From the NCBI GenBank assembly GCA_964524895.1, contig CAZGFG010000001.1:54936-118935 (forward strand): 64,000 bases of DNA, given 5' to 3'. Shown piece by piece: positions 22,820-50,216 of this stretch. The notes under the pieces are model-generated. The model saw only the letters and a program-made list of their open reading frames with translations, was not told the DNA's origin and ran no database searches. Each line of letters starts with the position of its first letter. Position 1 is the stretch's first letter. The position numbers were made by a program, and so were the translations under genes. The stretch is from an uncultured Gammaproteobacteria bacterium (GTDB lineage Bacteria; Patescibacteriota; Microgenomatia; Daviesbacterales; UBA10151).

Positions 22820-22893
22820 ACTCCTAGAAATAAATCTTACATAATTCTAATCCCTACTCCTTAGCCTGTCAATATTATATACTATCGCAGCTT

Positions 22894-23979: not shown

Positions 23980-23988
23980 GCAAAATAA

Positions 23989-26075: not shown

Positions 26076-26130
26076 GGATCTAAACAATTAGTTGACATCG
26101 TAATAAACTTGTCTATTATATGCTGGTAGT

Positions 26131-28826: not shown

Positions 28827-29485
28827 AAAAAACAGTTCTCCTTACCGGAGCTTCTCGAGGAATAGGCCAAGCTATAGCAGACCAATTAAAAAATAGATTT
28901 AAGCTTCTCTCTCCTGCCAGGGAAGAGCTTGATTTAAGTAATGATGCTTCAATAGAAAACTTTATAGAAAAAAATAAGGATTTAAAAGTAGATGTTATTA
29001 TAAATAATGCAGGGGTAAACTTTCCTCAATGGGTAGAAGAAATAACGGACAAAAATATCCGCGAAACATTCCAAGTAAATTTAATTGCACCTATAAAGCT
29101 CATCCAAGGTTTTGTTCATAATATGAAGCGAAATAAATGGGGAAGAATTGTCAATATTAGCTCTGCTTTTGGGGTAGTTGCAAGAGGTAAACAAGTGTTA
29201 TATGTTTCGACAAAACATGGAATTAACGGTGCGACAAAAGCTTTAGCTTTGGAGCTTGCTCCTTATAATATCCTTGTAAATTCTGTATGCCCTGGATTTA
29301 CCAGAACGGATTTAGTATTAAGAAACCCTTCAGAAAAAATTAAAGTTATTGAGCAAGATATTCCACTTGGCAGACTCGCTTATCCAAGCGAAATAGCCAA
29401 TCTTGTAGAATTTTTGATTTCCGATAAAAATACTTATATTACCGGTTCCTACATTGTTATAGATGGAGGGTTTACTTGTAAGTAA
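28823..29485 (+). CDS. Classical short-chain dehydrogenase/reductase (SDR).
   Basis: TGASRGIG cofactor motif, NNAG, and catalytic S...YVSTK (YxxxK). Confidence 0.8.
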   Translation: MKKTVLLTGASRGIGQAIADQLKNRFKLLSPAREELDLSNDASIENFIEKNKDLKVDVIINNAGVNFPQWVEEITDKNIRETFQVNLIAPIKLIQGFVHNMKRNKWGRIVNISSAFGVVARGKQVLYVSTKHGINGATKALALELAPYNILVNSVCPGFTRTDLVLRNPSEKIKVIEQDIPLGRLAYPSEIANLVEFLISDKNTYITGSYIVIDGGFTCK

Positions 29486-30452
29486 ACCTGCCGAATTAGG
29501 AATGATCATGAAAAGAAAAAAAGTATCAATCGGTGTTATTTGTTTTAACGAAGAGGATAATGTTATTCCTGCTCATAACGAGCTTGCGAGAGTTACCAAT
29601 AAAAATCAAAGATATACCTATGAATTTATTTTTGTTGATAATGGTAGTACAGATAATACTAGAAAACAGATTAAAAAAATCTCTGAAAAAGATCATAGAG
29701 TTGTCGGTGTTTTTTTATCACGTAACTTCGGTCCTGAATCTTCGGGACAAGCAGCCATAGATTTTGCCTCCGGAGATGCATTTGTTATGTACGAAGGAGA
29801 TTTGCAGGACCCTCCAGACGTTATCTTGGATTTCATCAAGCAGTGGGAGAAAGGCTTTGAAGCGGTAGTTGGTATTCGAGAAAAAATAGATGATATTCTT
29901 CCAATGACAATAACCAGAAAGCTATACTATAAGGTATTTAAGACAATTTCTAATATCGATATCCCTGTAAATGCCGGAAGTTTTTGTTTATTAGACAAAA
30001 AGGTAGTAGAGGCAATGAAAGAACTACCCGAGAAATACAGATTCTTCAGGGGTTTAAGAGCTTGGGTAGGATTTAAAACTTCCTATATCACTTACGAACG
30101 TAGAAGAAGACAAAAGGGAAAAAGCTCTTATAATTTTTTTAGATATTTACATCTTGCTGAACGAAGTTTCTTTGGCTTCTCTTATTTACCATTAGATATT
30201 ATTGTCTATTTTAGTCTTCTTTTAGTGTCTCTCTCAATCATCTGGTTAGCATTATTATTGTCCTCATTCCTTCTATTCGGGCAAACTATAAAGGAATCTA
30301 CGTTGATTTTGTTTTCAGTTATCCTCTTTGGTGGAATTCAACTGCTTGCTTCAAGCATAATCGGAAAATATATACAAGTTATAACGGAGGAAACAAAAGC
30401 ACGTCCTGTATACATAGTAGAAAGGGTCTTAAGGAATGAAAAAAATAGATGA
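29463..30452 (+). CDS. ArnC/GtrB-like GT2 polyprenyl-phosphate sugar transferase with two C-terminal TM helices. The true start is probably the internal ATG at 29502 or 29508 (MIMKRKK).
   Basis: VSIGVICFNEED...FVDNGSTDNT, YEGDLQDPPDVI (ArnC: DADLQNPPEEI), and the C-terminus GKYIQVITEETKARPVYIVERV (ArnC: [22 protein letters not shown]). Confidence 0.75.
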   Translation: MEGLLVSKPAELGMIMKRKKVSIGVICFNEEDNVIPAHNELARVTNKNQRYTYEFIFVDNGSTDNTRKQIKKISEKDHRVVGVFLSRNFGPESSGQAAIDFASGDAFVMYEGDLQDPPDVILDFIKQWEKGFEAVVGIREKIDDILPMTITRKLYYKVFKTISNIDIPVNAGSFCLLDKKVVEAMKELPEKYRFFRGLRAWVGFKTSYITYERRRRQKGKSSYNFFRYLHLAERSFFGFSYLPLDIIVYFSLLLVSLSIIWLALLLSSFLLFGQTIKESTLILFSVILFGGIQLLASSIIGKYIQVITEETKARPVYIVERVLRNEKNR

Positions 30453-31656
30453 TCTCCGGGTAACATACGCTCAAGCTGTTCACGATGAAGTAGAGGAAAA
30501 AAGAGTTTTAAGGGTTTTACGTGAACATAGAACAATCATGGGGAAAGAGGTTTCTGAATTTGAAAGAAGAGTAGCAAAGAAATTCGGCAAAAAATATGGG
30601 GTTATGGTAAATTCCGGTTCTTCTGCCCTTACTATTGCCATCGAGTTAATGAACTTACCAGCAGGTAGTGAAGTAATTACACCTCTTCTTACTTTCTCTA
30701 CTACAGTGGCTTCCCTTCTCAGAGACGGACTAGTCCCTGTTTTCACCGATGTTGATCTTAGAAAATACACAATCGATATTTCTCAAGTTGAAAACCTTAT
30801 TACTAAAGAAACCAAGGCTTTGATGATTCCACTTCTTTTAGGAAATGTTCCTGATATAGTAAAACTTTCTCTGATTGCAAAAAAATATAATTTATTCCTT
30901 ATAGAAGATTCTTGCGATACCCTGGGAGCAACTATAAATAGAAAACCAACCGGTCGATTTTCTGATATTAGTGTAACAAGTTTTTACGGATCACATATTA
31001 TTACTGCAGGAGGCGGAGGAGGAATGTTGATGACAGATAGAGCTGCCTTCTATGATAAAGCAAGGGTGCTTCGGGGTTGGGGAAGAAGCTCGTCCCGCCT
31101 GAATGAATCCGAAGATTTTAATAAGCGTTTTAGCCAAAAACTTGATGGTATCCTCTATGATGCCAAATTTATATTTGACACAATTGGCTATAATTTTATG
31201 CCTTTGGAAATAGGGGCAGCATTTGGAAATGCCCAACTTGATAAATTAAATATATTTAAGAAAATTAGAACACGCAATTTTGAACATCTATATAATTTTT
31301 TCAAAAATTACGAAAATTTTTTCATACTTCCTCTGCAAGAAACAAACATTAAAACTCAATGGCTAGCTTTTCCCTTGGTTATTAAAACCCAGGCTCCTTT
31401 TTCCAGATTTCACCTGGTTAAATATTTAGAGGAGAGAAATATTCAGACTCGTCCTATTTTTACAGGTAATATTCTAAAACACCCTGGTTTTCATTCTATA
31501 CCTCACAAGAGATCAAAAGAAGGCTACCATGTTACGGACGAAATCATGAAGCAAGGATTTGTCATAGGTTGCCATCACGGCCTAACTCTAAAGCACTTAC
31601 AAAAAATTAAAGATGTCTTCAATAACTTCTTAAACAAGTATAATAGCTGGCGGTAA
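30436..31656 (+). CDS. DegT/DnrJ/EryC1-family PLP/PMP enzyme with the catalytic lysine replaced by histidine; predicted sugar-nucleotide 3-dehydrase (E1/ColD type) rather than an aminotransferase.
   Basis: Family blocks are present (VMVNSGSSAL, IEDSCDTLGA). At the Schiff-base position the sequence is TSFYGSHIITAGGGGG, i.e. H where aminotransferases have K (SFH..K....GEGG). This matches the SFY..HHIT.GEGG pattern I recall for E1/ColD. Confidence 0.7.
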   Translation: MKKIDDLRVTYAQAVHDEVEEKRVLRVLREHRTIMGKEVSEFERRVAKKFGKKYGVMVNSGSSALTIAIELMNLPAGSEVITPLLTFSTTVASLLRDGLVPVFTDVDLRKYTIDISQVENLITKETKALMIPLLLGNVPDIVKLSLIAKKYNLFLIEDSCDTLGATINRKPTGRFSDISVTSFYGSHIITAGGGGGMLMTDRAAFYDKARVLRGWGRSSSRLNESEDFNKRFSQKLDGILYDAKFIFDTIGYNFMPLEIGAAFGNAQLDKLNIFKKIRTRNFEHLYNFFKNYENFFILPLQETNIKTQWLAFPLVIKTQAPFSRFHLVKYLEERNIQTRPIFTGNILKHPGFHSIPHKRSKEGYHVTDEIMKQGFVIGCHHGLTLKHLQKIKDVFNNFLNKYNSWR

Positions 31657-31670
31657 ACTATCTCTATGGA

Positions 31671-33590
31671 TTAGTTACTAAATACTAATCTTTTTTTGAC
31701 TTCATCTGTGATATTTATTACTTTAGGTCCTTCAACTGCAAATGCATATAAATTCTCTAAACTAATAAATTTTCCATCTAAAGAATAGCCTTCACCATTA
31801 CGGATGCACCTCATTTCTTTATTCCCCTCATTCCTATATAGAAACTCCTTTGATCCATTCTGGACAGTAGCCATCTTTTGTAGTTCTAAAAAATCCCATG
31901 TTAAGGCAATACATGCATTAGTAGTATTGTTTGTTATATAACTCATTTCTATAGGCAACCAATATGTTAAGTTTCTCCAATCAAAAATATCCTCCCACTG
32001 ATTGGGAGCTTCTACTTCTTCTGTTTTAAACTTTATATAAATCAATAAATTACCATTCATTTTATCTTTTGAAATATAACTTAATGTTTGAGCCTTCATG
32101 GATTCTTGAATTTGTAACTCCCTACCGGAACTCTTTTTTCCATAAAAAAGCTGAGCGATTTCCGCTTGACTGATACTAAAAATCTGAAATATAACCACTA
32201 GTATTAGAAGTAATGCTAACAGTCTATTTATTCGCTTATTTCTTTGGTAAAGTAAAGTCAATATACTTGCTATAAAAAGATAGGAACCTATGGTTGAAAT
32301 AACAAAATACCTGTGTATACCTTCTTGATACATATAGTAATCCCTTGTAAAAAACCACTGCCCCAGGATAAACAGTAACGCGAAAAAGGGAGACAGAAGT
32401 GCAAAAAGTAGGAGAGTATTTTTCTTACCAGTTAAATACCATTCAATTCCGCAACTTATTGAAATAGAGATAATAAAGGCTGCTAAAATCCCAGAGTATA
32501 ATCCAGCATTAAAGGATGGCCCTGCATACCCAATGACAAGATGTTCAGGTATTCCAAAATGATGAGTATATAAAACAAAAATAATAACATCAAATATTAA
32601 ATTTATTAACATTGATATAGAAAAAAATCTGAATGGTTTATTAGATATAATAAAAGATAAAATAAGAGAAACTGCCCCAAAGATAATAAATGGTTTATAA
32701 ATTAAAGAGGAGATATAAGCAGACAGATTGGATATATTGATTGGTACAAGGATATTAAGAGATGCAGCCGGTAAAAATGTATAGCCTAGTCCCCATAATG
32801 GATTTAAAAGGAAGTACCAATTTCCGTTGGTAATTTTTTTAATAAAATCAGGCCAGCCTGCAGGACTATATGCATCTCCTCCAACATTTCCTAAACTATT
32901 CAAAGTAATAGTAATAATTGGCAAAAAGATCGCACTTAATCTTAAAACTGAAACAATAAAATTACACTTCTTATCTTTGATCAGAATAAATAACTCAACA
33001 AATAAAATAATTATAAATATAGGAAAGATGCGAATAGGAGATGCTAAATACCCAAACGTAACAATTAAAGATAGAAGCGATACGGTAATGATGGTTGGTT
33101 TTTTTACACAATAGTAATATACAATTAGAAACAGGAGCATTAATGCTACTCCCAAATATTCATTACCTACTACATAAAGGTATAGCGCTCCAGTAGATGG
33201 ATAGCTGAGGCCATATAGAAAAGTTCCCAAAAAGGAAAATAGCCTATTCTTAGTTAGAAGCAGAATGAGAGGATAGAGCAGCAAAGTGGCAACTATTTTA
33301 AAGAAAATGTTTGTATAAAGATACATTGTATAGTTTTTCCCATACAAACTATCTAAAAAACCTAAATAGAAGTCGTGTGTTGCGTTATGAATACCTACCT
33401 TTTTCCATGTACCTATGGGATCTGAGAACATTTGGTCTTTGCTAAATCTGATCTGATAAAAACCACCATAATCCTCATTGGTTAATCCTTGACCTACAAT
33501 TGGTTTCAATAAAATAAATTGGAAAAAAATAATTATTAGAACTAAAGCAGGAAATATAATAGGTCCTGAAAATATCTTAGTTAGCTGCAT
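31671..33590 (-). CDS. GT-C-like polytopic membrane glycosyltransferase paralogue (639 aa).
   Basis: Multi-TM protein with the family-conserved C-terminal tail (LYAFAVEGPKVINITDEVKKRL). It is first of three tandem paralogues. Confidence 0.6.
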   Translation of the reverse strand: MQLTKIFSGPIIFPALVLIIIFFQFILLKPIVGQGLTNEDYGGFYQIRFSKDQMFSDPIGTWKKVGIHNATHDFYLGFLDSLYGKNYTMYLYTNIFFKIVATLLLYPLILLLTKNRLFSFLGTFLYGLSYPSTGALYLYVVGNEYLGVALMLLFLIVYYYCVKKPTIITVSLLSLIVTFGYLASPIRIFPIFIIILFVELFILIKDKKCNFIVSVLRLSAIFLPIITITLNSLGNVGGDAYSPAGWPDFIKKITNGNWYFLLNPLWGLGYTFLPAASLNILVPINISNLSAYISSLIYKPFIIFGAVSLILSFIISNKPFRFFSISMLINLIFDVIIFVLYTHHFGIPEHLVIGYAGPSFNAGLYSGILAAFIISISISCGIEWYLTGKKNTLLLFALLSPFFALLFILGQWFFTRDYYMYQEGIHRYFVISTIGSYLFIASILTLLYQRNKRINRLLALLLILVVIFQIFSISQAEIAQLFYGKKSSGRELQIQESMKAQTLSYISKDKMNGNLLIYIKFKTEEVEAPNQWEDIFDWRNLTYWLPIEMSYITNNTTNACIALTWDFLELQKMATVQNGSKEFLYRNEGNKEMRCIRNGEGYSLDGKFISLENLYAFAVEGPKVINITDEVKKRLVFSN

Positions 33591-33616
33591 AGTTTTGTAA
33601 TAGTATATCCTATTTT

Positions 33617-35494
33617 TTACTGATTCAAAAGGTTAGCTTGATTAGAATATAGTTCTTGTAATATCTCTTTGGTATTTGGGACTAAGTTTCGACCCTTAAA
33701 TCTAAAGGCGTGAAAGTTTTCTTTCTTAAAAACATTTTCTCCACATTTAGTACTGACTATGGTTTCTCCATCTCCTAAGATAGCAACAAACCTTTCTAAT
33801 TCTTCTTTGCCTAAAATTTCAATATTACACAGCTGAAATCGTTTTTCTTTGGGGATATTCTCCTTTAAGTCAAACCAACTGGCTAACCTCCATATAATTA
33901 CTTGCTCATAATAAGCACCATTTTCGTTCTCCTCTGCCTGCCCAAAATAGATAAGTGGTAGGTTCTCTTTATTGTAATTTCTTGAAGTATTTATCTCTCT
34001 CCAGAATTGATTCCATACTCTTTGTTGATCTGTAGCTCTTAATCCGTGAAACAGCCAGTATGAAAAATATTCATCGATAGTACTGGAACTGATTTTAAAA
34101 TAAAATCCTATGAAAATAGCTACTAAAAGAAGGGGGATGGTTAAATTTACATCTATGTCTAATTTGATTCTTTCGAAAATAAGCACCAAAAGTATAGCGA
34201 TAACTATACTGGTTCCTATTGAGGGGATATTTAAATATGCATGCACACCCATAAAAATAGAGTTGAAGTCTGCAAAAACCCAGGTTAAAAAAATAAATAT
34301 AAACGATGAAGTTATGGCGATAAACGCTAGCGGCAAAAGATTGTTCTTTACGTTAGATTCTTTCCATTCCCAAAGGAATACTAGATTTAGAGAAACCATC
34401 ATAAGTCCAATTAATGCAGGGGTCATAAAAACTCCCGGGTCTACAGGAGCTCTGGTCATTTTGTCTAGATAAAGCCAGTTGTGAGCCAATAAATACGCAG
34501 CAAGACCTAGAATTATATTTAGTCCAAAACAGCGTATAAAAAACTTGAATGGTTTTTTGGAGATTAGTGCAGCTAAAAAACCATCGAATAAACTATATAA
34601 AAATAGTGGTCCTAAGAGAAAGTAAGAAAAAAAGGAGTAGAAGTCTTCGTAATTTGGTACTCCAAAAATTATCCAGAACTCCCTTGGTATATAGGTGCTT
34701 CCTAAGGACGCAAAAGGAGATAAGAAAAGTTGATAGTTTCCCTTACTCAGTATATCAAGTAAGGCAATTGGATATAGTAAAGACACAATTATCGATCTAG
34801 GTGAAAAAAGAAATAACAACAATAAAGGAGAATACAATATTAGTAACCTGGTGGTCGAAATTTTAAATTGATTTTTAAATTCGTTTCGAAACAAATTAAC
34901 CAGTTCAATTAAGGGAAGAATAATCATTAACGGAAAAAGCCGGGTAGGATCTATAACAATCGTTACCAACATCCATATCGAAAGGATAAGTATGGTTGTT
35001 AATCTGGATATATTCTTTTTAACTACATATATATATGTAGTTAAAAACAAATTCATTGATGCAATAGCTATAAAGTCTTCTCCTCTGGAAGCGTTATCTA
35101 GACTTCCAAAGGGAGAATAGTGGATAGAGAAAAACAATGTTGATAGAAATGCCAATAATCTACTCTTGGAAATGGTAAGGACTAAGGGATATAGGCTAAT
35201 AGATGCAATAATTTTTAAAAATTGATTAGTTACGGAATATAAAGAATAATTTAAGCCGAAAAAGTTATATAAGACCCCTATATAATAGGAATGAGGAAAC
35301 CAATGCGGCCCTAATTCTTTCCATGCAGAAAAAAAATCAAGAATAGGATTTTGAATATATGCTCGATATGCTGAGAGAAATAACCAATCATCAGTAAAAA
35401 AACCAAACTCTAAATGCTTTAATCCGAGGAGAAATTGTGTTATTGATGCAATAAAAGCAAGAATGCAAATAACCCTGAAGTCTTTTTTATTCAT
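33617..35494 (-). CDS. GT-C-like polytopic membrane glycosyltransferase paralogue (625 aa).
   Basis: FFTDDWLF motif after TM1, KSRLLAFL, NIPSIG and a C-terminal FHAFRFKGRNL tail. Confidence 0.6.
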   Translation of the reverse strand: MNKKDFRVICILAFIASITQFLLGLKHLEFGFFTDDWLFLSAYRAYIQNPILDFFSAWKELGPHWFPHSYYIGVLYNFFGLNYSLYSVTNQFLKIIASISLYPLVLTISKSRLLAFLSTLFFSIHYSPFGSLDNASRGEDFIAIASMNLFLTTYIYVVKKNISRLTTILILSIWMLVTIVIDPTRLFPLMIILPLIELVNLFRNEFKNQFKISTTRLLILYSPLLLLFLFSPRSIIVSLLYPIALLDILSKGNYQLFLSPFASLGSTYIPREFWIIFGVPNYEDFYSFFSYFLLGPLFLYSLFDGFLAALISKKPFKFFIRCFGLNIILGLAAYLLAHNWLYLDKMTRAPVDPGVFMTPALIGLMMVSLNLVFLWEWKESNVKNNLLPLAFIAITSSFIFIFLTWVFADFNSIFMGVHAYLNIPSIGTSIVIAILLVLIFERIKLDIDVNLTIPLLLVAIFIGFYFKISSSTIDEYFSYWLFHGLRATDQQRVWNQFWREINTSRNYNKENLPLIYFGQAEENENGAYYEQVIIWRLASWFDLKENIPKEKRFQLCNIEILGKEELERFVAILGDGETIVSTKCGENVFKKENFHAFRFKGRNLVPNTKEILQELYSNQANLLNQ

Positions 35495-35560
35495 TTCTCT
35501 TAATACTGGTTTTTAAGGAAAGGTAAAAACCAAGATTTGTAAGGTTTTATCATATAAGTA

Positions 35561-37438
35561 TTACTCATCTGCTTCAAGCTCTCTCAAAATTCGATCTTTA
35601 ATGTCTATTGGCTCTTTGTTTTTTAATCTAAAAGCATAAAAATCCTTTAAAGAATAGAAATGTGGCTTATAACAATAATCATAGAGGTAAAATCCTTTCT
35701 CCCCCTTTTTTGTCATGAATATCTCTTTTAACTGTTCCGGACGATTAATTATAAAAACAGGAAGACTACAGCTTCCTGGCTTATAGCTACCTTTAAAAAA
35801 CATCCAGTCAGAAAATCTGCCAAGGGTACTCATTTCATAGAACCTTCCGTTGAGATAGTCATCACTTGTATCAAAATAAAATAAGGTGGGGGTTGAGTTA
35901 TCAAAGCCTCCTAGTTTACTCCACACTCTGTCTCTCATCATCTCATGCTCCTTAGCGTCCATGCTATAACTGGTGATATCCCAGTTAGATTGAATTATTC
36001 TCTTATCCATATTGTAAATAGGTATCAGTAAAAGAAAGGTTAACAAAGCAATATTCTTACCTAAAACCCCAAAAACACTGATCTTTTTATACAGCAGTAC
36101 TAGAGTTCCTGCTATAAAGATGCTGCTTCCAATTGAGGGGATATTTAGATACGTATGAACTCCTTTAAACAAGACAGACCAATCCTTGAACATCCATGTA
36201 AAAAATATGAAATTACTAGAAAATAAACATCCTACCCATAAGGCTTGGTATAAATGATTATTTTTTCCAGAATCGTTCCATTCTCGCCAGATAAAGAAAG
36301 ATAACGACAGAATATAAATTGCTATGAAAACCGGGTAAAGTTCTATGTAGTCATAATGAACTTGAAGAGTTGATTGAAGTGTTTCTTGATGTTTAACTAA
36401 AACAAAAGCTATTAATTGGAAAAATATATTCGTTGACAAAATTCCGAAAAAGAAATTATATAGTCTTTTTTTAGGAACTGATAGAATAAAAACATAGAAA
36501 AGGGTTACTATTCCAAATATTGGTAAAGTATTGGTAAGCAGGTAACCGATATAATCAAAAATATTTTTAAGTTGAGGTGTGCCAAAAAATTTCCCATAGT
36601 CAGTTAAGAGAAAGATACTGCCCAATGACCCTAAAGGATAAAGTAATAATTGCCAGTTTCCTCTTAATATTTTATCGATGATCGCTGGAGCATTCAAGGT
36701 AAAACTAATTACTGATGAGGGAGAGACAAGAGTCAACACTAGATAAGGGAAAAAAAGAATCGTTAGTTTTTTAGATGTTTCCCAGGACACCTCTTTTGAT
36801 CTCCTTATAATAACTAAGTAGATCTCAATAAATAAAATGAAGGCTAGGAGGGGATATATTCTAATAGGGGAGAAGAGCATACTCATTAACAAAAGGATCA
36901 TTTGAAAAAAAAGCCACTTTCCCCCCCTTATTACTCCAATATGAAACAAGTAATAGGTAATTAAAAAGATACACATAAAAATTACAGCAATAAAATCACT
37001 CCCCCTTACAACCAACTCCAATGTCCCCACAGGAGAATAAGCCATTGCATATAAAACAACGGTAATAAAGGCTAGCAGCCGATTTTTAAAAACAATTAGC
37101 ACTAAAGGATAAACCATTAAAGCAGCCAGTCCCTTGAGGATCTGATTTATAACTTGGTACATTTGAAAATTAAAACCTAAGAACTGATGCAAAAAACTTA
37201 TGTATAGCGTCTGATAGGTGGTATATATACCCTGCTCCTTCCAAACTAATAAAAGCCCCATAAGTTTAAAGTGAGCAAGCGGCCACCAATCATCAGGAGT
37301 AAAACCATAGTTAAGTTGGGGTCTTAAAAGAACATATTGTAAGCCTGTTACTATAATTGTTAATAGGAAAAAAACCAATAAGTTCTTCTTATTCTTGATA
37401 AGAAAGTTTTTCAATGACTTAGTGGGAATATTGGTCAT
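35561..37438 (-). CDS. GT-C-like polytopic membrane glycosyltransferase paralogue (625 aa).
   Basis: FTPDDWWPL motif, KNRLLAFI, NIPSIG and a C-terminal FYAFRLKNKEPIDIKDRILRELE tail. Confidence 0.6.
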   Translation of the reverse strand: MTNIPTKSLKNFLIKNKKNLLVFFLLTIIVTGLQYVLLRPQLNYGFTPDDWWPLAHFKLMGLLLVWKEQGIYTTYQTLYISFLHQFLGFNFQMYQVINQILKGLAALMVYPLVLIVFKNRLLAFITVVLYAMAYSPVGTLELVVRGSDFIAVIFMCIFLITYYLFHIGVIRGGKWLFFQMILLLMSMLFSPIRIYPLLAFILFIEIYLVIIRRSKEVSWETSKKLTILFFPYLVLTLVSPSSVISFTLNAPAIIDKILRGNWQLLLYPLGSLGSIFLLTDYGKFFGTPQLKNIFDYIGYLLTNTLPIFGIVTLFYVFILSVPKKRLYNFFFGILSTNIFFQLIAFVLVKHQETLQSTLQVHYDYIELYPVFIAIYILSLSFFIWREWNDSGKNNHLYQALWVGCLFSSNFIFFTWMFKDWSVLFKGVHTYLNIPSIGSSIFIAGTLVLLYKKISVFGVLGKNIALLTFLLLIPIYNMDKRIIQSNWDITSYSMDAKEHEMMRDRVWSKLGGFDNSTPTLFYFDTSDDYLNGRFYEMSTLGRFSDWMFFKGSYKPGSCSLPVFIINRPEQLKEIFMTKKGEKGFYLYDYCYKPHFYSLKDFYAFRLKNKEPIDIKDRILRELEADE

Positions 37439-37444
37439 AACAAT

Positions 37445-38836
37445 CTAACAGCTATTGATATTATTAAAACGGCTATCTCTATCATAGTTACATTTAACAC
37501 GAGTAAACTCCCATACCCTATTATCAATTGCTTCCCGAATTACAAGATCTGGCTTGTATTGCTCAACTAATGATTGATCCAACTTAAACGATAGGTCATT
37601 ACGAATTATATTATCAAAACTAAGTCTGAAGAAATAATCCAGACCAATAGGTTCTGGATGTATACTTTGAATCATAAGATAGCTAATAATCCTGTCTTGA
37701 GTAACTTTATTGGGAATTTTTTCCCTGATAATTGATACTATATCTTCAAAATAATATTTAGGCAGCCAATATCCAGGATTTGGATCGATAAGTTTATCTG
37801 ATCCAGGCTCTGCAAACAATTGATAGGCCAAAGGGGCCATTTCAGGAAATGTATTAATAAGACATTTTACGCACACTCTTCTATCTATGTTTAAATATGA
37901 GTCTCCATATTCTAATATAGCCCCTAATTTAGGATGTTTATTAACAGAGTTATCTCTTATCTTAAATTTGACTCCGATTTCAGGCCGGCCAGGATTTTCG
38001 GGATAATTTAACCCGCCATCTCCCAACCACATCTCGTATTTTTCCAATGAGATATTAAAATCTTCTTCCGTGTATGTTTTTATTTTTTTAACCTTTGCTA
38101 ATCTAGTCATAATTTCTTTATAGGCCAGAAATGCACCATAGTTGGTCCAATGAGAGTCGGTTTTAAAGAATAAGGGGTATGATTTTTCGCTTTGGAGGAA
38201 GGCATCTGTTACATCAATAATCTCTAAAGATGTTTTTTCCTTCATATAATTAACAAACTGGTTGTGTCTTGCTATTGAAATCCGATCATCGAATTTTAGA
38301 GTATGGTTATAAACCACTCTCCTATCGGGAACGATCACAAGAAAATAAGGGATATTTTGTCTATCAAGGGATGCTTTTTCTCTCTCAAAAATTTCTTTAA
38401 AGCTATTTAGTTCATCTTGAGTATAAAAAATTCTTTGATAGATCCTTTTATAATCTTGTCCAGGCGCAAGTGCACCAAATATCATCCCTTGGTCATTAAA
38501 ATGAGTTTTAAAAACCTTGTTGGTCTTTAATAAATCTAGCTTTAAAACAAGATACTTCTTCAGAAAGATGTTTCTCAATCCAAAATTATCCAAGAAATAA
38601 GCATTTAACTCATTAATTACTGTATGCTCATAAAGATTAATCAAATGCGCGTTAAGACTGGTTTTAACCTCAGAAAGATTTTTAGGGTAATTAGAATTAA
38701 TCACGGGCAATTTTGCAGTTTCTCTCCTTTCTACCAGATCGTCAGCTGAAGTAACCCCTAGAAATTGACCAACGTAAATTGTTGTTATAACTAAAAAATA
38801 GCTAATCAAAAGAAAATAATTAAAAATGCTTTTCAT
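37445..38836 (-). CDS. AlgJ/AlgX/DltD-like periplasmic O-acyltransferase partner protein (DHHW/SGNH-like), N-terminally anchored.
   Basis: N-terminal TM or signal, then FFKTDSHWTNYGAF (the D-x-H-W motif of the AlgJ/AlgX family). It sits 3 nt downstream of the MBOAT gene. Confidence 0.6.
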   Translation of the reverse strand: MKSIFNYFLLISYFLVITTIYVGQFLGVTSADDLVERRETAKLPVINSNYPKNLSEVKTSLNAHLINLYEHTVINELNAYFLDNFGLRNIFLKKYLVLKLDLLKTNKVFKTHFNDQGMIFGALAPGQDYKRIYQRIFYTQDELNSFKEIFEREKASLDRQNIPYFLVIVPDRRVVYNHTLKFDDRISIARHNQFVNYMKEKTSLEIIDVTDAFLQSEKSYPLFFKTDSHWTNYGAFLAYKEIMTRLAKVKKIKTYTEEDFNISLEKYEMWLGDGGLNYPENPGRPEIGVKFKIRDNSVNKHPKLGAILEYGDSYLNIDRRVCVKCLINTFPEMAPLAYQLFAEPGSDKLIDPNPGYWLPKYYFEDIVSIIREKIPNKVTQDRIISYLMIQSIHPEPIGLDYFFRLSFDNIIRNDLSFKLDQSLVEQYKPDLVIREAIDNRVWEFTRVKCNYDRDSRFNNINSC

Positions 38837-38839
38837 GCT

Positions 38840-40249
38840 TTAGAAACGGAAATAGATGAATGATTGATATGTTTCTGCTGATATAAAGATAAGCGAAAGC
38901 AGAAATAAGAAAGTAAAGGCCAACAAGCGAAATACTTCACTTGGTATCACTGATATTTTTGTTCTCTTGATATATGTTAAAAACATGGAGAAAATTGGAG
39001 TTGCAAAGAAGAGTCCTAAAATTAGAGCTAAAATTATATCATTTCTGACAAAATAATCGGTCGAATAGTAAATCAAATCTTGGTTAAGATTATTAAACAT
39101 CAATTTAATAAAACCCGCTGACTCTGTTAGACTCTCACTTCTAAAAAATACCCAGCTTATTAATAACACCAAAAGGGTATAAACATGCTTGACTAATTTA
39201 GGCATCCAGTTAATGAAAAATCCTCCTTTTAGTCTTTCTAAAACAAGAAATATTCCATGGAATAAACCCCAAGCTATAAAGGTCCAGTTTGCACCATGCC
39301 ATAGTCCTGTTAAAGCAAATACTAAGATAATATTTCTAAAGGTTACAATCTCGCCTTTTCTATTACCCCCCAATGGTATATAGACATAATCTTTAAACCA
39401 ATTATACAATGTCATATGCCATCTTCTCCAAAAGTCTATAATACTTGTTGCTGTATATGGATAGTTGAAGTTTTCCGGGAACTTAAAGCCGAAGATCATC
39501 CCTAGGCCAATTGCCATGTCAGTATAACCCGAGAAGTCATAATATATTTGTAGTGCAAAACAAATTACTGCAATCCAAATTTGCTCTATGGATACATGTG
39601 CAGGACCGATACTGAAAACTTCATCTGCTACCGGGGCTAGAGTGTTTGCAATAATTACCTTTTTAGATAATCCGATCATAAATCTATATAATCCTTGTGA
39701 GACCATCTGCCAGTCAATTGCTCTTTTTATAAGCTTTTTTGCCACTTGGTGGTATCTGATAATAGGACCAGCAATTAGATGTGGAAAGAGAGTAAAATAA
39801 AGGACCAATCTTGCCAAATTTTTTTCCGGCTTATTAACCCCTTTAAATACGTCTATATTGTATGAAATTGCATGGAAAGTAAAAAAAGATATTGCTAAAG
39901 GTAAATAGATATTAAAAGTTTTGTTATCTATCCCTACAATATTTAAATTGCCAAATATAAAATTGGTATATTTAAAGTAAGCTAAAACTCCTAAATTTAA
40001 GATTATTGCTAAGATCAAAGATGCCCGTTTCGAATCTTTCTTCTCCTGCATCGAAATTGCAAGAGAAGTAAAAAAATTTAGTATAATCCAAAGATATATT
40101 AACAGAACATATAACCCCTCGCCCCAAAAATAAAACAAACCACTAGCTATAATTAATAAAATATTCCTCTTATCTTCCCGTAGAAAAAAATACAGAACAA
40201 GTACCAGTGGGAAAAAGTATAACAAAAAAACCGGACTAGTAAAATTCAT
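38840..40249 (-). CDS. MBOAT-family membrane-bound O-acyltransferase (AlgI/DltB-like).
   Basis: Polytopic protein with IDFWRRWHMTLYNWFKDYVYIPLGGNRKG (the MBOAT WRRWH / catalytic His region) and a downstream conserved H (GLWHGANW). Confidence 0.85.
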   Translation of the reverse strand: MNFTSPVFLLYFFPLVLVLYFFLREDKRNILLIIASGLFYFWGEGLYVLLIYLWIILNFFTSLAISMQEKKDSKRASLILAIILNLGVLAYFKYTNFIFGNLNIVGIDNKTFNIYLPLAISFFTFHAISYNIDVFKGVNKPEKNLARLVLYFTLFPHLIAGPIIRYHQVAKKLIKRAIDWQMVSQGLYRFMIGLSKKVIIANTLAPVADEVFSIGPAHVSIEQIWIAVICFALQIYYDFSGYTDMAIGLGMIFGFKFPENFNYPYTATSIIDFWRRWHMTLYNWFKDYVYIPLGGNRKGEIVTFRNIILVFALTGLWHGANWTFIAWGLFHGIFLVLERLKGGFFINWMPKLVKHVYTLLVLLISWVFFRSESLTESAGFIKLMFNNLNQDLIYYSTDYFVRNDIILALILGLFFATPIFSMFLTYIKRTKISVIPSEVFRLLAFTFLFLLSLIFISAETYQSFIYFRF

Positions 40250-41876
40250 TTTTAACTCTATTTATCTTAATCTTGGCCAGCTCCTCTCGTACCATCTCTG
40301 TTATTTCAACCAGCCGATTTTTTCCTTCTAGCTTGAAGGCATACACATTTTCAATTGGAATTGGTGCTTGAGGGAAATCAAATGGCGCCAATGAACTGCC
40401 ATCTGTTACGGCCGATACGACTTGTTCCCAACCATCCAGAGGAACTGGCATCTTAGAAAAATCATCTAAATTATAAGCTAACGCCATATGTACAGGAAAA
40501 CCGAATGTCAGTGCTCCATAAAGAATTTGTCTATTCTCCCCTGTGAAATAAAAGACCTGCGCTTCTCCACTCTTCCCAATTTCCGAGATTAAAGGAAGTT
40601 GTTCCCAAACTTTTTCTGTAATTTCAACACCATGCAAATTGTCTACTTGATACTGTAAGTAGTTTCTTGAAGAATAAATGTTTAATATAAGAAACAGCGA
40701 AACGAAAAGAACACCTAATATCGTAAATTTTCTTTTTATTCTACTTATAAGAATCGCTATAAAAATGGTTAGTCCGGATGCTGAGACTATTAGATAACGA
40801 TGAAAAAAGGGTAGTAAAGTTAATGGATCTTTAAGCCAAGCGAAAATAAATGCACATATTAACCAGCAAAAAGCTAAAAAGAATCCAGTCGAAATTAGAT
40901 AGTTGCTACGATTTTTATAGATCAGCCTTAAGGCAAAAAGGATAAAGAATATCCCTACCCAAAGCATTATTCTTTGATCAACCATCTGATAGTCAAGAGG
41001 TATTAACATATTACCGATAATAATAAGCGGGTACAGAATAAAATCTGTACTTCCTTTATTCAGCAAGGCTCCAGACGAAGCTAATCCCCCTTTCCATACT
41101 CCGGTTAGCTGATCTATCGGACCAAAAAGGGAATATCCCGAACGCCCACCAAATTCGGAGACTATCTGACCAAATATGACTAGAATAATAAATAAACTTA
41201 TAAAACCACTCAACCGGATTATTAACAACTTTAGATTTTTTAACTGAAAAAATCTAAAGAAAAAGAATAATTCCATTAATAGGACAAGGGGTACTGCACC
41301 AGTCATTCTGACTGAGGCAGTAAACATCGCCAGAACCAAAAACAATAGGCTAATCACATAAAAACGCGGGTTGTAGTCTTTTTCATGAGCCTTCACAAAA
41401 TAAAGGAGGAAAAAATTGAATAAAGCTATGGCAATATAAACTGGCATATTAAAAACCCAATTAGTAGCATCAAGACCTACGGCAGTTACAGAAAAAAATA
41501 AAACAGCCAATACAGCAGAAACTTTATTCTTAGTTAAATAATAAACAAGCGGATAAAAAGATAGAGCTGCAATCAACCTTAGAATATAAGCTGTAATATA
41601 GTAGTAAAGAGATTTAAAACCCACTATCTCTGCTATCAAACCCATTATTAACTCAAACGAGCCGTACCTGGTTAAAAAATACGTTAAGTAGTTTAAAGCT
41701 CCATGGGAAACAGGACCAATGGTATAGAAATATCTCCATAACGCTAGCCAATCATCTCCATAAAGTCCTAATTGAAAGCTTGGATAAAGTGCAAATAAAC
41801 TGAAGGGCACCAGAATTAGAAAAATGAAAATTAGATTCTTTCCTTTAGTCATTATTTTTAAAATCTTTAACAGCAA
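40236..41876 (-). CDS. GT-C-like polytopic membrane glycosyltransferase paralogue (546 aa).
   Basis: LYGDDWLALW motif after TM1, the family NIP... region and a C-terminal VYAFKLEGKNRLVEITEMVREEL tail. It overlaps the upstream methyltransferase by 32 nt. Confidence 0.6.
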   Translation of the reverse strand: MLLKILKIMTKGKNLIFIFLILVPFSLFALYPSFQLGLYGDDWLALWRYFYTIGPVSHGALNYLTYFLTRYGSFELIMGLIAEIVGFKSLYYYITAYILRLIAALSFYPLVYYLTKNKVSAVLAVLFFSVTAVGLDATNWVFNMPVYIAIALFNFFLLYFVKAHEKDYNPRFYVISLLFLVLAMFTASVRMTGAVPLVLLMELFFFFRFFQLKNLKLLIIRLSGFISLFIILVIFGQIVSEFGGRSGYSLFGPIDQLTGVWKGGLASSGALLNKGSTDFILYPLIIIGNMLIPLDYQMVDQRIMLWVGIFFILFALRLIYKNRSNYLISTGFFLAFCWLICAFIFAWLKDPLTLLPFFHRYLIVSASGLTIFIAILISRIKRKFTILGVLFVSLFLILNIYSSRNYLQYQVDNLHGVEITEKVWEQLPLISEIGKSGEAQVFYFTGENRQILYGALTFGFPVHMALAYNLDDFSKMPVPLDGWEQVVSAVTDGSSLAPFDFPQAPIPIENVYAFKLEGKNRLVEITEMVREELAKIKINRVKNEFY

Positions 41877-42492: not shown

Positions 42493-43500
42493 TTAATTTA
42501 GTTTTTTTCTCCAATTCTCTGGTAAAAGTTGGCTATCAATTTCAATTTCAGTATAAATAGGATTTTGTACCCCTTGTGATTTTACATATTCCCATGTTTT
42601 TTTTAAACCCTCATTAATAGAGGTTCTATCTTTATATCCTAAATATTTTTTTGCTAAACTATGGCTTGAAATAGCAATCTTTACCTCTTGGGGTCTATTT
42701 TTAATGTATTTTGGCTTTATTTTGAGACCAGAAATATTTTGTACTATGTCAGAAAGTTCATTAATAGAATGATCTTTATCTGATCCGATATTAAATATCA
42801 TGCCATTGGCGTTTAAAAATCCACATTTTATAATTGCATCGACTACATCACTAATGTAGGAAAAGCATCTTCGCTGTCTCCCATCCCCATAAATAAAATA
42901 AGGTTCGCCCTTAAGAAGAGCACTCATAAAAATAGTAACTACATTTCGATAGGGGTCTGACATATTTTGACCAGGTCCATACACATTATGAGGTCTAGTA
43001 ATTACATATTCAAAATTATGGACACTGCTTAATATCTTAAGCGATTGCTCTACAGCAAGTTTCCCCACTCCATATATATCTTCTGGTTCAGGTCTATCTG
43101 ACTCTTTAAAAGGTGCCCGAATAGATCCATAAACAGCAATGCTAGATGTAAATACGAATCTCTTCATACCATTATTTAAAGCAGGAACAAGAGTATTTAT
43201 GAAGGTATTATATGTTCTAGTAGAAATATCTATTGGTGAGAATTGGGCCTTATTCTCAGCAGCATTTGCTGCTAAATGGTAAATAATCTCCGGCTTTATA
43301 ACCTTGATTATTTCTTCTGCTTTTTTTCTATCTCTCAAATCACAAAGATAAAATTTAGAGTTAGGGTTTAGATTTTTTTTACTACCACCTGATAAATCGT
43401 CTATATTAAAGACATTATGACCTTCACTTATTAATTTATTTATTAAATGACTTCCAATGAATCCCGCTCCCCCAGTCACTAGAATGTTTCTTTTTTTCAT
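42493..43500 (-). CDS. NAD-dependent epimerase/dehydratase (UDP-sugar 4-epimerase/decarboxylase-like extended SDR).
   Basis: ILVTGGAGFIGSHL and YGVGKLAVE (YxxxK). 335 aa. First gene of the ~12 kb minus operon. Confidence 0.8.
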   Translation of the reverse strand: MKKRNILVTGGAGFIGSHLINKLISEGHNVFNIDDLSGGSKKNLNPNSKFYLCDLRDRKKAEEIIKVIKPEIIYHLAANAAENKAQFSPIDISTRTYNTFINTLVPALNNGMKRFVFTSSIAVYGSIRAPFKESDRPEPEDIYGVGKLAVEQSLKILSSVHNFEYVITRPHNVYGPGQNMSDPYRNVVTIFMSALLKGEPYFIYGDGRQRRCFSYISDVVDAIIKCGFLNANGMIFNIGSDKDHSINELSDIVQNISGLKIKPKYIKNRPQEVKIAISSHSLAKKYLGYKDRTSINEGLKKTWEYVKSQGVQNPIYTEIEIDSQLLPENWRKKLN

Positions 43501-45280: not shown

Positions 45281-47503
45281 ATGAGAACCCTTCTTGTCAC
45301 CTCTATCCTTGCTTTAATTCTAGTTTGTAGCTGGTTTAAGGATGGTGATTTGATGGGATACGCAGAAGGGGCTCTTCCCTTCTATAAAATTTCCCGTTAT
45401 TTAGATCAAACTTCATATGCATGGACTGCGCATCCGGGCCTGGGAAATATAAGCTTAATTACTACTGCCTCTAAGCCCACATATCAATTACTGACCCTAA
45501 TTCAGGATTCAGGTATAGCTGGGTACCAGATTCAAGCAGCGGTTTTTTGGTTTCTTTTAGTAAGTGCTGGGGTAGGAATTTATCTATTTACTAAAGAATT
45601 TTTTCCTGAATTACCTGAAAAATATTTATTTCTGGCAATATTATTTTATTGGTTTAATCCGATCTCTTTGGTCAATATTTGGAATAGATTCTTGCTTAAC
45701 TATATTTTCTTTTTTGGAGCACTCCCCTTGCTATGCTTTCTATTTATCAAGGGTTTACGAGCAAAAAGTTATTTTTGGGGCTTACTGCTGATAACTACTA
45801 TTGGAATTTATTCTTATATCTTTTCTTATCTGGCTTTTAGCTTGCTTATCTGGATTGCTTTTGGAATTTTTACTCTTTTCTTCATTCTGCTTGAGAAGGA
45901 ATCAAGGGTATGGCTTTTTTATCTAAAATATGTAATTTTGGTATTTGTTCTTTTTGTTTTATCTAATTCTTGGTGGATTAGCCAGCTATTAACATTCCAA
46001 TCCTCATTTGGATTTGATAAATCCTTTCAGGAACTATTTAACACTGCAAGTAATTTAGGGGTCTTGGATGCTATAAGTCAAAAGTTGGGGAATTTAACTC
46101 ATATATTTAGAATGTCTCATGCCTACTTTTTTACCCAACCCTCTATGGAGTGGGTCAAACTCTTCAATTATCCACTTTTGGTTGCTGTAGAATATTTTAT
46201 CTTTGGGATTATTTTTTATTCTTTTATTAAAAATTACCAGGAAAAATCTTTTTTCTTATTAGGAAGCATCTTGTTCTTGGTTATTTTTCTAGTAAAAGGA
46301 AGTAATCCTCCTTTTGGAGAAGTTTATAGTTTATTATTCCAGAATCTTTCCTTTTTACAGGTCTTTCGAAATCCTTTTGAGAAATTTGGGTATCTCCAAT
46401 CCATGTTAGAAGCATCATTATTTGCAATAAGTCTTTATTATTTGCAGAAAAAAAAGTTTCCCCTAAGAAGACAGTATTTGTATTTATTCTTCTTTTTTTT
46501 TATAACATTTATCTGGGGATTCCCCTTTTTTACAAACCTGGTATTTACCAATACAGAGGCTCCCTCGAACATTTACTCTATCGGTTATAAAGTCAAAGTC
46601 CCTCCGTATTATTCAGAAGCAAGTGATTGGTTGCAACATCAGGGTAGTAATTTTCGCTTAATTGGCTTCCCTATTACTGAGGAAGGGGTTACATATAATT
46701 GGGAGAAGGGCTACTCTGGAGTAGAATTATCCAGTACTCTTTTCTCAACCCCAGGAGTCTTTTTTAACACTGCTGTACCTATGCATCATGATCTAGTCCC
46801 TAAATTACAACCTCTTTTATTTGAAGAAGAGAGTTTCTATAGAATAGCAAATATTATTAATGCCCGATATTACTTAGTGAGAGACGACGTAAATTATCAA
46901 ATACGGGCTCTTAAAAACCCTGAAGGAATAAAAAGAAGGTTTGCATATTTAGAAGAACAAGGAGAAGTAAAGAAGGTAGCAAGCTTTGGAAAGTTAACTA
47001 TCTGGGAAAACTTAAACTGGTTTGATACTACTTTTTATCCTGTTTTAGAGGTGGTGGCAGTCTCATCAAAATTTGATAAGAATATTCTGTCTAAAGTCGA
47101 TCCTTCAAAAGGGAGGGTCTTATTGAACAAAGAGATGAATCTGTCAAAAGAAAATACCTCTAATATCAAACTACAATACAAAAAAATTAATCCTGCTAAA
47201 TACGCTCTCCATATCTCAACTGATAAACCGTTTATTTTAATCTTCTCTGAGCTTTTTAATGGAAACTGGCAAGCAATTTATCCTGATAAAAAAATAGTCG
47301 ATAATCATCTGATTGCTAACTATTTTGCCAATGCATGGATGATTGATAGGGTAGGAGAATACGATATCGAAATTCTCTTCAAACCTCAGGTTCTTTTTGA
47401 AACTGGTCAAAAATTATCACTTATAACACATAGTATAGTTATTTTATTATTAGGGTATCTCTACTTAAGAACGAGAGGTTATGTAAAAAACCAAAATGAT
47501 TAA
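45281..47503 (+). CDS. 740 aa polytopic membrane protein, YfhO/AftD-like GT-C putative glycosyltransferase; paralogue of 8039..11536.
   Basis: Its N-terminus (CSWFKDGDLMGYAEGALPFY) parallels VWFKDGNILAIGESGIPFY, and the YSIGYKVKVPPYYSEASDWL...GVTYNWEKGYSGVEL block is shared. It has a C-terminal TM (ITHSIVILLLGYLYL). Confidence 0.6.
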   Translation: MRTLLVTSILALILVCSWFKDGDLMGYAEGALPFYKISRYLDQTSYAWTAHPGLGNISLITTASKPTYQLLTLIQDSGIAGYQIQAAVFWFLLVSAGVGIYLFTKEFFPELPEKYLFLAILFYWFNPISLVNIWNRFLLNYIFFFGALPLLCFLFIKGLRAKSYFWGLLLITTIGIYSYIFSYLAFSLLIWIAFGIFTLFFILLEKESRVWLFYLKYVILVFVLFVLSNSWWISQLLTFQSSFGFDKSFQELFNTASNLGVLDAISQKLGNLTHIFRMSHAYFFTQPSMEWVKLFNYPLLVAVEYFIFGIIFYSFIKNYQEKSFFLLGSILFLVIFLVKGSNPPFGEVYSLLFQNLSFLQVFRNPFEKFGYLQSMLEASLFAISLYYLQKKKFPLRRQYLYLFFFFFITFIWGFPFFTNLVFTNTEAPSNIYSIGYKVKVPPYYSEASDWLQHQGSNFRLIGFPITEEGVTYNWEKGYSGVELSSTLFSTPGVFFNTAVPMHHDLVPKLQPLLFEEESFYRIANIINARYYLVRDDVNYQIRALKNPEGIKRRFAYLEEQGEVKKVASFGKLTIWENLNWFDTTFYPVLEVVAVSSKFDKNILSKVDPSKGRVLLNKEMNLSKENTSNIKLQYKKINPAKYALHISTDKPFILIFSELFNGNWQAIYPDKKIVDNHLIANYFANAWMIDRVGEYDIEILFKPQVLFETGQKLSLITHSIVILLLGYLYLRTRGYVKNQND

Positions 47504-49589: not shown

Positions 49590-50216
49590 ATGTCAAGTCT
49601 ATTCAACACACTCAAGCGCTCTCCCATTTATGATCTACTTCTACCTATATTTCAGATATTAGAGGTCAAGAAATGGCAAGACAGAAAGATGAACCCTCCA
49701 ACACCACAACTTATAAAACATTCCGTAGTAAGAGAGTATCTATGTAAGTATAGGGTACAGACACTGATTGAGACAGGGACGTATTTGGGAGTTATGATTG
49801 ATGCTCTTAAAAGAAATTGTAATGAGATCTATACTATAGAATTAGATAAGAGGTTATATGAACGAGCCAAAAAAAAGTTTAAGAAATATTCCCATATCAC
49901 AGTACTTCAAGGAGATAGCACCAAAGTTCTACCTCGGATATTAAAAAAGATTAACAACCGCACTCTTTTTTGGTTAGATGCCCATTTTTCTAAAGGAATT
50001 ACGGCGAGAGGGGAAAAGGAAACACCTGTTATGGAGGAACTTAAAGCTGTTCTCAATCACCGAATTAAAAATCATGTCATTTTAATTGATGATGCAGATG
50101 TATTTAATGGTAAAAATGATTATCCAACTATTAATACCGTCAGAAGACTTATTAATGCAAAAAATACTAAGTTAAAGTTAAGAATTAAAAACAACATTAT
50201 CAGAATTACGCCTTGA
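49590..50216 (+). CDS. Putative class I methyltransferase-fold protein (TylF/CmcI-like O-methyltransferase fold), 208 aa.
   Basis: LIETGTYLGVMIDAL (glycine-rich SAM loop-like) and FWLDAHF. The assignment is tentative. Confidence 0.4.
   Translation: MSSLFNTLKRSPIYDLLLPIFQILEVKKWQDRKMNPPTPQLIKHSVVREYLCKYRVQTLIETGTYLGVMIDALKRNCNEIYTIELDKRLYERAKKKFKKYSHITVLQGDSTKVLPRILKKINNRTLFWLDAHFSKGITARGEKETPVMEELKAVLNHRIKNHVILIDDADVFNGKNDYPTINTVRRLINAKNTKLKLRIKNNIIRITP

Follow-up and report, generated by a model that had tools for sequence, protein, structure and literature searches.

A predicted MBOAT and AlgX-family O-acetyltransferase pair located among genes for GT-C-fold membrane proteins

The present study concerns two adjoining minus-strand open reading frames (ORFs), at 38840-40249 (469 residues) and 37445-38836 (463 residues), in a 64-kb stretch of DNA (hereafter the window) with a guanine-plus-cytosine (GC) content of ~33%. 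The coordinates are exactly those of an original prediction made from the same DNA. The first ORF encodes a membrane-bound O-acyltransferase (MBOAT); the second encodes an SGNH-like partner of the AlgX/AlgJ/DHHW family. Together, they very probably form an O-acetyltransferase with two components, an MBOAT and an SGNH protein, of the AlgI/AlgJ (PatA/PatB1, WssH/WssI) type. In the mechanism that we propose, the polytopic MBOAT would take acetyl from cytoplasmic acetyl-CoA, and its His318 would catalyze the auto-acetylation of Tyr466 in the C-terminal FIYFRF motif at the membrane's outer face. The anchored AlgX-family partner would then receive the acetyl on Ser313, a member of the putative triad Asp227-His229-Ser313, and would hand it on to a hydroxyl group on an extracytoplasmic glycan. 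For this acceptor, the most probable candidate is a glycopolymer or glycoconjugate of the cell surface, which would be built from polyprenyl-phosphate sugars by the four GT-C-fold enzymes encoded around the pair in the same orientation.

An MBOAT with a WRRWH/His region had been predicted at this position, with Pfam PF03062 named as the check. The match was found at 96.2 bits (cut-off 27, E 3e-27), and PF13813 (MBOAT_2) was a second Pfam match. In a PDB sequence search, residues 109-338 matched the DltB structures 8jem and 6bug (E 3.5e-25), and both histidine motifs align with those of DltB. His278 of the first motif and His318 of the second are invariant in the MBOATs of related loci; WHG or WHA was found in 120 of 120 MBOAT homologues. 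The account in PMC12148441 ascribes a catalytic role to the universally conserved MBOAT histidine, to which His318 corresponds. Furthermore, the protein ends in FIYFRF; this motif is unchanged in five related MBOATs from four contigs, and each of the 120 best homologues ends in the pattern F[ILV]Y[FY][RK]F. Between the end of the DltB-alignable core (residue 338) and this motif, a hydropathy scan suggests hydrophobic segments at residues 351-370, 399-427, and 432-461, which would provide C-terminal transmembrane helices that DltB lacks.

As described by Anderson et al. (PMC12148441), two extra transmembrane helices of bacterial MBOATs, DltB excepted, bear an FxYxxF acyl shuttle at the C-terminus. 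In PatA, according to the same account, the tyrosine of the motif is auto-acetylated from acetyl-CoA in a reaction that requires the conserved histidine, and the acetyl-tyrosine peptide is the donor to the SGNH partner. DltB, as presented there, is devoid of FxYxxF and relies on the microprotein DltX and the carrier protein DltC. Since FxYxxF is fused to the MBOAT in the window, the protein has the AlgI/PatA configuration within this framework. Judged by its sequence, the MBOAT itself is ordinary and its close kin are very widespread: at least 7,999 homologues were found at E ≤ 1e-30, and full-length identity is ~45% to proteins from Bacteroidia, Deltaproteobacteria, and Gemmataceae, many of which are annotated as AlgI.

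The partner matched PF16822 (ALGX; 59.3 bits, cut-off 26.5, E 6e-16) and PF14286 (DHHW; 27.4 bits, cut-off 25, E 2.6e-6). Profile hidden Markov models of the AlgX, AlgJ, and DltD families had been proposed as the check on this protein; the ALGX and DHHW families were matched, and there was no DltD-family match at E ≤ 0.01. Its lone N-terminal hydrophobic anchor and its D-x-H-W motif (TDSHW, residues 226-230) bear out the earlier description of a "periplasmic D-x-H-W protein", except that "periplasmic" is better replaced by "extracytoplasmic", a term that presupposes no particular envelope type. In a 15-sequence alignment reaching down to 21% identity, D227, H229, W230, D312, and S313 are invariant, as are the juxtamembrane E36 and D83; G86 and R88 are nearly so. 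The best PDB sequence match was Bacillus cereus PatB1 (5v8e, E 1.5e-4), which covered ~100 residues.

The lack of an SGNH/DHHW fold in the predicted structure had been set beforehand as the result that would count against the partner assignment. The fold was present. The AlphaFold2 model of the partner has a mean predicted local distance difference test score (pLDDT) of 78, mostly above 90 across residues 140-460. A Foldseek search with this model gave ten significant PDB matches (E 9e-10 to ~2e-6), all of them AlgJ, DHHW, PatB1, or AlgX structures, including AlgJ 4o8v (E 9e-10), the DHHW protein 4nzk, PatB1 5v8d, and AlgX 4knc and 7ula. The target-normalized TM scores of these ten were 0.35 to 0.57, and the eleventh match had an E value of 0.19.

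In sequence terms, the partner has diverged far more than the MBOAT has; a word index of 5.8 billion proteins contained only 18 homologues. The eleven closest partner-type sequences share a ~70-residue insertion after the GDS motif that is without counterpart in AlgJ-like sequences. In the window protein, this insertion, common to the partner and its ten closest homologues, spans residues ~316-395 and is modeled mostly with high confidence. The partner subclade that has it was seen together with the GT-C-fold family of the flanking genes on three contigs. Six of these eleven sequences also carry a C-terminal tail with two conserved cysteines. An extra insertion of ~19 residues, at residues 53-71, is seen in the window partner alone.

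The pairing recurs elsewhere. Wherever a related contig extends to the upstream gene, which is so in five (L001, L082, L083, L085, and L086), the MBOAT gene adjoins the partner gene. A profile search of genome contigs with the partner alignment gave 79 loci from many phyla among the matches listed, the best of which had 27% identity. An MBOAT gene lay directly upstream on the same strand in 51 of the 79 and elsewhere in the locus in 14; there was none in 12, and 2 could not be evaluated. Because the pairing recurs across these loci, the MBOAT/AlgX-type module appears to be ancient, mobile, and common.

Two of the related contigs bear on the acyl donor. In L085 (1-7773), where the partner relative is 29% identical, an acetate-CoA-ligase-like gene (663 bits) has an MBOAT/AlgX-type pair on either side. 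Genes for a 78-residue acyl carrier protein (ACP), a holo-ACP synthase (ACPS), and a serine-hydrolase-like protein also lie between these pairs. This cluster could represent a local supply of acetyl-CoA or an MBOAT-SGNH variant that depends on a carrier protein. In L083 (280-3790), where the partner relative is 28% identical, there are genes for an FkbH-domain protein (315 bits), an ACP, an ACPS, a MaoC dehydratase, and a short-chain dehydrogenase/reductase (SDR). This set is located 5 to 9 kb upstream of the MBOAT/AlgX pair and is a hint that the same glycan cluster includes a pathway working through glyceryl-ACP or hydroxyacyl-ACP. Acetyl is most likely the group transferred by the pair in the window, because the characterized AlgX-family systems transfer acetyl and because L085 has an acetate-CoA-ligase-like gene between its two pairs.

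The pair is located within a minus-strand run that extends from 43500 to 31671 and was counted as nine genes. Eight of them are named, in order: the SDR, the methyltransferase, the 546-residue protein, the MBOAT, the partner, and proteins of 625, 625, and 639 residues. The MBOAT and partner genes are 3 nt apart, the partner gene and the next GT-C gene are 6 nt apart, and the gene for the 546-residue GT-C protein shares 14 nt with the MBOAT gene. The methyltransferase and GT-C genes overlap by 32 nt with a TTG start, or by 8 nt with the ATG start of the public gene call. The two distal GT-C genes are set apart by gaps of 66 nt and 26 nt. From this spacing we infer co-transcription of the run. 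The original prediction had described co-transcription with 3-14 nt gaps or overlaps, a description that fits the inner junctions and not the distal GT-C genes. It had also counted a methyltransferase in the co-transcribed set, and the Pfam matches corroborate the methyltransferase. Consensus scans of the window for promoters and terminators returned counts at chance level and were uninformative on operon structure, and tRNA and Rfam scans of the window gave no matches. The features are collected in Table 1.

Table 1. Coordinates of the MBOAT/partner pair, its motifs, the surrounding gene run, and related features in the 64-kb window
Feature	Coordinates	Strand	Evidence
NAD-dependent sugar-nucleotide epimerase/dehydratase, 335 residues, first gene of run	42493..43500	-	PF01370 1e-47
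S-adenosylmethionine (SAM)-dependent methyltransferase, 209 residues	41845..42474	-	PF08241 2e-11, PF13649 2e-10
GT-C-fold membrane protein, 546 residues (538 from ATG at 41852), directly upstream of MBOAT	40236..41876	-	hhalign to GT-C family profile
MBOAT acyltransferase, AlgI/PatA type, 469 residues	38840..40249	-	PF03062 3e-27
MBOAT WRRWH motif, residues 274-278	39416..39430	-	aligns with WNRWH of DltB
MBOAT LWHG motif, residues 316-319; His318 is the histidine conserved in all MBOATs and predicted to be catalytic	39293..39304	-	aligns with FWHG of DltB
MBOAT FIYFRF, residues 464-469, C-terminal FxYxxF acyl-shuttle motif with Tyr466	38843..38860	-	
AlgX/AlgJ/DHHW-family SGNH-like putative O-acetyltransferase partner, 463 residues	37445..38836	-	PF16822 6e-16, PF14286 2.6e-6
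Partner lone N-terminal hydrophobic anchor, residues 3-23	38768..38830	-	hydropathy scan; helix 2-25 in AlphaFold2 model
Partner TDSHW, residues 226-230, predicted catalytic Asp227 and His229	38147..38161	-	aligns with TDHHW of PatB1
Partner GDSY, residues 311-314, predicted nucleophile Ser313	37895..37906	-	
GT-C-fold membrane protein, 625 residues, directly downstream of partner	35561..37438	-	
GT-C-fold paralogue, 625 residues	33617..35494	-	BLASTP to 35561-37438 product
GT-C-fold paralogue, 639 residues, final gene of run	31671..33590	-	BLASTP to 35561-37438 product
GtrB/ArnC-type polyprenyl-phosphate glycosyltransferase (GT2), 329 residues	29463..30452	+	GtrB 5ekp 1.3e-62, full length
Pfam-less membrane proteins	3-3146(-), 3157-5940(-), 6151-7656(+), 8039-11536(-), 15567-17498(-), 31671-37438(-), 40236-41876(-), 45281-47503(+)		

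The four flanking membrane proteins had been called GT-C transferases, and our data support this at the level of fold, though they match none of the curated GT-C sequence families (PMT_2, ArnT, AftD, STT3, and others). None of the four had a Pfam or NCBIfam match at E ≤ 0.01. The 28 members of their family had no such match even at E ≤ 1, and the 28-member profile had no PDB sequence match at E ≤ 10. In BLASTP comparisons with the 35561-37438 product, the 33617-35494 product is 31% identical over 635 residues (E 3e-73) and the 31671-33590 product 27% identical over 642 residues (E 4e-39). The 546-residue protein, in which a hydropathy scan found eleven hydrophobic segments, aligned with the GT-C family profile in hhalign with a probability of 99.3 (E 2.8e-20) over 497 columns that include the DDW motif. 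D50 of this motif, the acidic residue of the first extracytoplasmic loop just after the first transmembrane helix, is invariant in the 28 sequences and aligns in the 546-residue protein. The family numbers 1,058 cluster representatives (clusters at 50% identity) at E ≤ 1e-3 among 1.84 billion; its sole named member, from Candidatus Daviesbacteria, has 33% identity.

A candidate source of sugar donors lies 1.2 kb past the final gene of the run. The GT2 encoded there, besides its full-length match to GtrB, also matched ArnC (9hwj, 2.4e-27) and DPMS (5mlz, 7e-12), and scored 219 bits with the NCBIfam model PgfS, under its cut-off. This enzyme likely supplies lipid-linked sugar donors to the GT-C enzymes. 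Pfam and NCBIfam scans of its ORFs characterize the 64-kb window overall as a glycan-biosynthesis island. We tie the acceptor of the pair to the product of the GT-C enzymes because of the tight gaps and overlaps, the GT-C fold, the nearby GtrB/ArnC-type synthase, and the glycan island around them.

Several points weigh against this assignment of the pair and its acceptor. The N-terminal ~135 residues of the partner model are of low confidence. In most phyla the MBOAT/partner module sits outside GT-C contexts, and in L086 the relative of the partner adjoins housekeeping genes; therefore, GT-C neighbors are no conserved feature of the family. Near the pair, L083 and L085 encode an ACP as well as a phosphopantetheinyl transferase, so a different (non-CoA) donor is possible in part of the clade. 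The absence of dltA and dltC, which had been proposed as the genome-level distinction between acetylation and D-alanylation and which speaks for the acetylation type here, is established only for the 64 kb. Furthermore, the auto-acetylation of Tyr466 and the transferase activity of the partner are predictions from sequence and model, and the acceptor is not readable from sequence.

Of the alternative explanations, the one that survives best is that the pair O-acetylates peptidoglycan, at the C6 hydroxyl of N-acetylmuramic acid, as PatA/PatB does, its position among GT-C genes being incidental. This is unlikely, although PatA/PatB is, in the description of PMC12148441, an MBOAT-SGNH pair with the same shuttle motif. 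The tendency of the module to travel apart from GT-C genes in most genomes is in line with it, as is the name of the partner's best PDB sequence match, PatB1. However, the partner belongs to the AlgX/AlgJ/DHHW family, and no Gram-negative PatB is found among its ten significant fold matches. PatB1 of B. cereus, moreover, is said to acetylate secondary cell-wall polysaccharide and not peptidoglycan, a finding attributed to Sychantha et al. 2018, which counts against peptidoglycan as the target here. Secondary cell-wall polysaccharides form a separate target class in the classification given by PMC12148441. In addition, the pair is packed at 3-14 nt within a glycan-assembly run, and Pfam scans found no peptidoglycan-synthesis gene in the window.

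It is improbable that the same architecture and shuttle serve a non-acetyl short acyl group, such as a propionyl, succinyl, or glyceryl-derived one. The acyl group is not fixed by sequence alone, and the FkbH/ACP/MaoC/SDR set of L083 lies within 5-9 kb of its pair. Against this, the characterized MBOATs with an AlgX-family partner that are described in PMC12148441 and PMC10302187 all transfer acetyl, to alginate, cellulose, or secondary cell-wall polysaccharide. The window contains no acyl-activating genes, and L085 ties the module to the acetate-CoA-ligase-like gene.

Slightly more improbable is a Dlt-like D-alanylation or another carrier-protein-dependent acylation, in which the MBOAT would accept an aminoacyl or acyl group from a phosphopantetheinyl carrier protein and the partner would esterify a teichoic-acid-like polymer. 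The only NCBIfam model matched by the MBOAT is DltB (TIGR04091), the best solved structures are DltB as well, and genes for an ACP and an ACPS occur close to the relatives of the pair in L083 and L085. However, the TIGR04091 score of 150.1 bits is far under the cut-off of 375, and the FxYxxF motif is fused to the MBOAT, where DltB, in the account of PMC12148441, obtains it from DltX. The partner is an AlgX/DHHW protein and not DltD, and no DltD structure was among its significant fold matches. The 3-6 nt junctions leave no room for a microprotein, and the AMP-binding gene of L085 is acetate-CoA-ligase-like, not DltA-like. Among all ORFs of at least 100 residues in the 64 kb, none had an AMP-binding, PP-binding, or DltD domain, and the window has no intergenic gap above 210 nt able to hide a carrier-protein gene. 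Thus, where the original prediction allowed either an AlgI/AlgJ-like or a DltB/DltD-like system, the first stands, and D-alanylation is rejected on account of the fused motif, the non-DltD partner, the failed DltB equivalog score, and the absence of any AMP- or PP-binding protein in the 64 kb.

Finally, that the partner is an SGNH esterase removing acyl groups, with an unrelated role for the MBOAT, is hardly credible and was rejected: esterases have the SGNH-like fold too, and in vitro the enzymes of the AlgX family act as esterases, but the MBOAT-then-partner order is kept in 51 of the 79 loci across phyla, and the fused donor motif of the MBOAT requires an SGNH acceptor in the scheme of PMC12148441.

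The predicted two-component O-acetyltransferase is set in a region rich in other glycan-related genes. The 64 kb encode at least ten large polytopic membrane proteins without Pfam matches, which can be divided into two families. One comprises the proteins of 546, 625, 625, 639, and 643 residues, with a 501-residue protein as distant kin; the other comprises proteins of 1165, 740, and 927 residues, the first two being 40% identical. An hhalign comparison of the 740-residue protein with the GT-C family profile was negative (E 0.11); this protein is a member of the second family. A homologue of this protein in L082 carries PF11847 (GT-C_AftD). An array of probable GT-C enzymes as dense as this is unusual. 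A gene for a SAM methyltransferase of ~210 residues is immediately followed by a GT-C-fold gene three times (11544-12176/8039-11536(-), 44652-45275/45281-47503(+), and 41845-42474/40236-41876(-)), and in L083 (3871-6983) the same two gene types adjoin in reverse order. This arrangement looks like a repeated methyltransferase and GT-C cassette.

A scattered set of genes resembles the aminoarabinose (Arn) pathway. It comprises a UDP-glucose dehydrogenase (50206-51606(-)), the SDR (42493-43500(-)), for which the nearest NCBIfam model is GalE, matched under its cut-off, a DegT aminotransferase with RfbH as best model (30436-31656(+)), a formyltransferase (62990-63733(+)), an ArnD-like deformylase (62166-62993(+)) with 90 bits, and the ArnC/GtrB-like GT2 (29463-30452(+)). 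All members score under their equivalog cut-offs, so the sugar is not assignable; L082 holds a similar set. Two carbamoyltransferases of the NodU/CmcH type (PF02543 and PF16861; 47682-49487(-) and 53312-55051(-)) suggest that the glycan may also be O-carbamoylated. At 21590-27960, the gene for a NeuB-like synthase adjoins that for an AroB-related putative sugar-phosphate cyclase (TIGR04425, 352 bits, cut-off 400), in the company of an FGGY kinase, a HAD phosphatase, and a three-domain thiamine-pyrophosphate-dependent enzyme. This group may serve to make an uncommon sugar of the nonulosonic or cyclitol type. A split transketolase is encoded at 57410-59130(+), its N- and C-terminal halves being separate overlapping genes.

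The module itself is ordinary, widespread bacterial O-acetylation machinery, and its interest lies in the context, namely the unannotated GT-C array and the insertion in the partner. The pair serves as an annotation anchor for the island, indicating that the last steps toward its product take place beyond the cytoplasmic membrane and that this product probably carries O-acetyl groups, and it ties a Pfam-less GT-C-fold membrane family to extracytoplasmic glycan assembly. The divergent partner beside a conserved MBOAT illustrates how acceptor specificity would reside in the SGNH component. The Daviesbacteria homologue (33% identity), together with the low GC content, points weakly to Patescibacteria (the candidate phyla radiation, CPR) as the source lineage. 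Were the source of this type, the locus would be an entry point to the nearly unstudied cell-surface chemistry of the group; among the papers listed by a literature search, none contained both MBOAT and Patescibacteria. As a tentative possibility, the pair might decorate the product of a wall glycopolymer pathway peculiar to its lineage, probably Patescibacteria/CPR, in which the polymer is built outside the membrane by the unannotated GT-C family, and the insertion and cysteine tail of the partner might form a new acceptor-recognition module that tunes a generic AlgI-type shuttle to this polymer.

Among the known systems, DltB/DltD shares with the pair a homologous MBOAT core and the logic of MBOAT, tyrosine shuttle, and SGNH protein in succession. 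Unlike that system, the pair has the motif on the MBOAT and not on DltX, the partner is outside the DltD family, no DltA, DltC, or DltX is encoded in the window, and the MBOAT scores far under the equivalog cut-off. The cellulose system WssH/WssI is similar in that, in the description of PMC10302187, an MBOAT and an AlgJ/AlgX-like transferase act on an extramembrane polysaccharide; in contrast, the window has no BcsA-type synthase and no equivalents of WssF or WssG. The alginate pair AlgI/AlgJ of Pseudomonas offers the same arrangement, in which an MBOAT with fused FxYxxF precedes an SGNH-like protein of the AlgX family that has a type-II anchor and an Asp-His-Ser triad, and AlgJ is the best fold match of the partner, just as the homologues of the MBOAT are routinely annotated as AlgI. 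However, identity to AlgJ is ~12% in the structural alignment, the post-GDS insertion of the partner clade is not found in AlgJ-like sequences, and the neighbors here are GT-C enzymes. Alginate acetylation was considered as a candidate and rejected: Pfam scans of the window did not find the families of AlgF, of a second AlgX-type protein with a carbohydrate-binding module, or of the polymerase and export genes alg8, alg44, algK, and algE. The alginate and cellulose systems are thus excluded because their synthase, export, and accessory genes are absent from the window.

PatA/PatB of Neisseria and Campylobacter resembles the pair in that both the C-terminal FxYxxF and the catalytic histidine are present in the window MBOAT, and the transfer from acetyl-CoA to the FxYxxF tyrosine and on to the SGNH serine has been demonstrated for this system, according to PMC12148441. 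It differs in that no PatB structure of that system is among the significant fold matches of the partner, and in that the genomic context here points to a non-peptidoglycan glycan. In PatA1/PatB1 of B. cereus, the context differs as well, the pair in the window being accompanied by the GT-C array and a methyltransferase, and the sequence match to PatB1 extends over ~100 residues only. Nevertheless, PatA1/PatB1 is likewise a minimal two-gene combination of an MBOAT and an AlgX/DHHW-family protein, and PatB1 is both the best PDB sequence match of the partner, with TDSHW aligned on TDHHW, and one of its strong fold matches. By analogy with this system, the target of the pair may be a wall-associated glycopolymer rather than a secreted exopolysaccharide.

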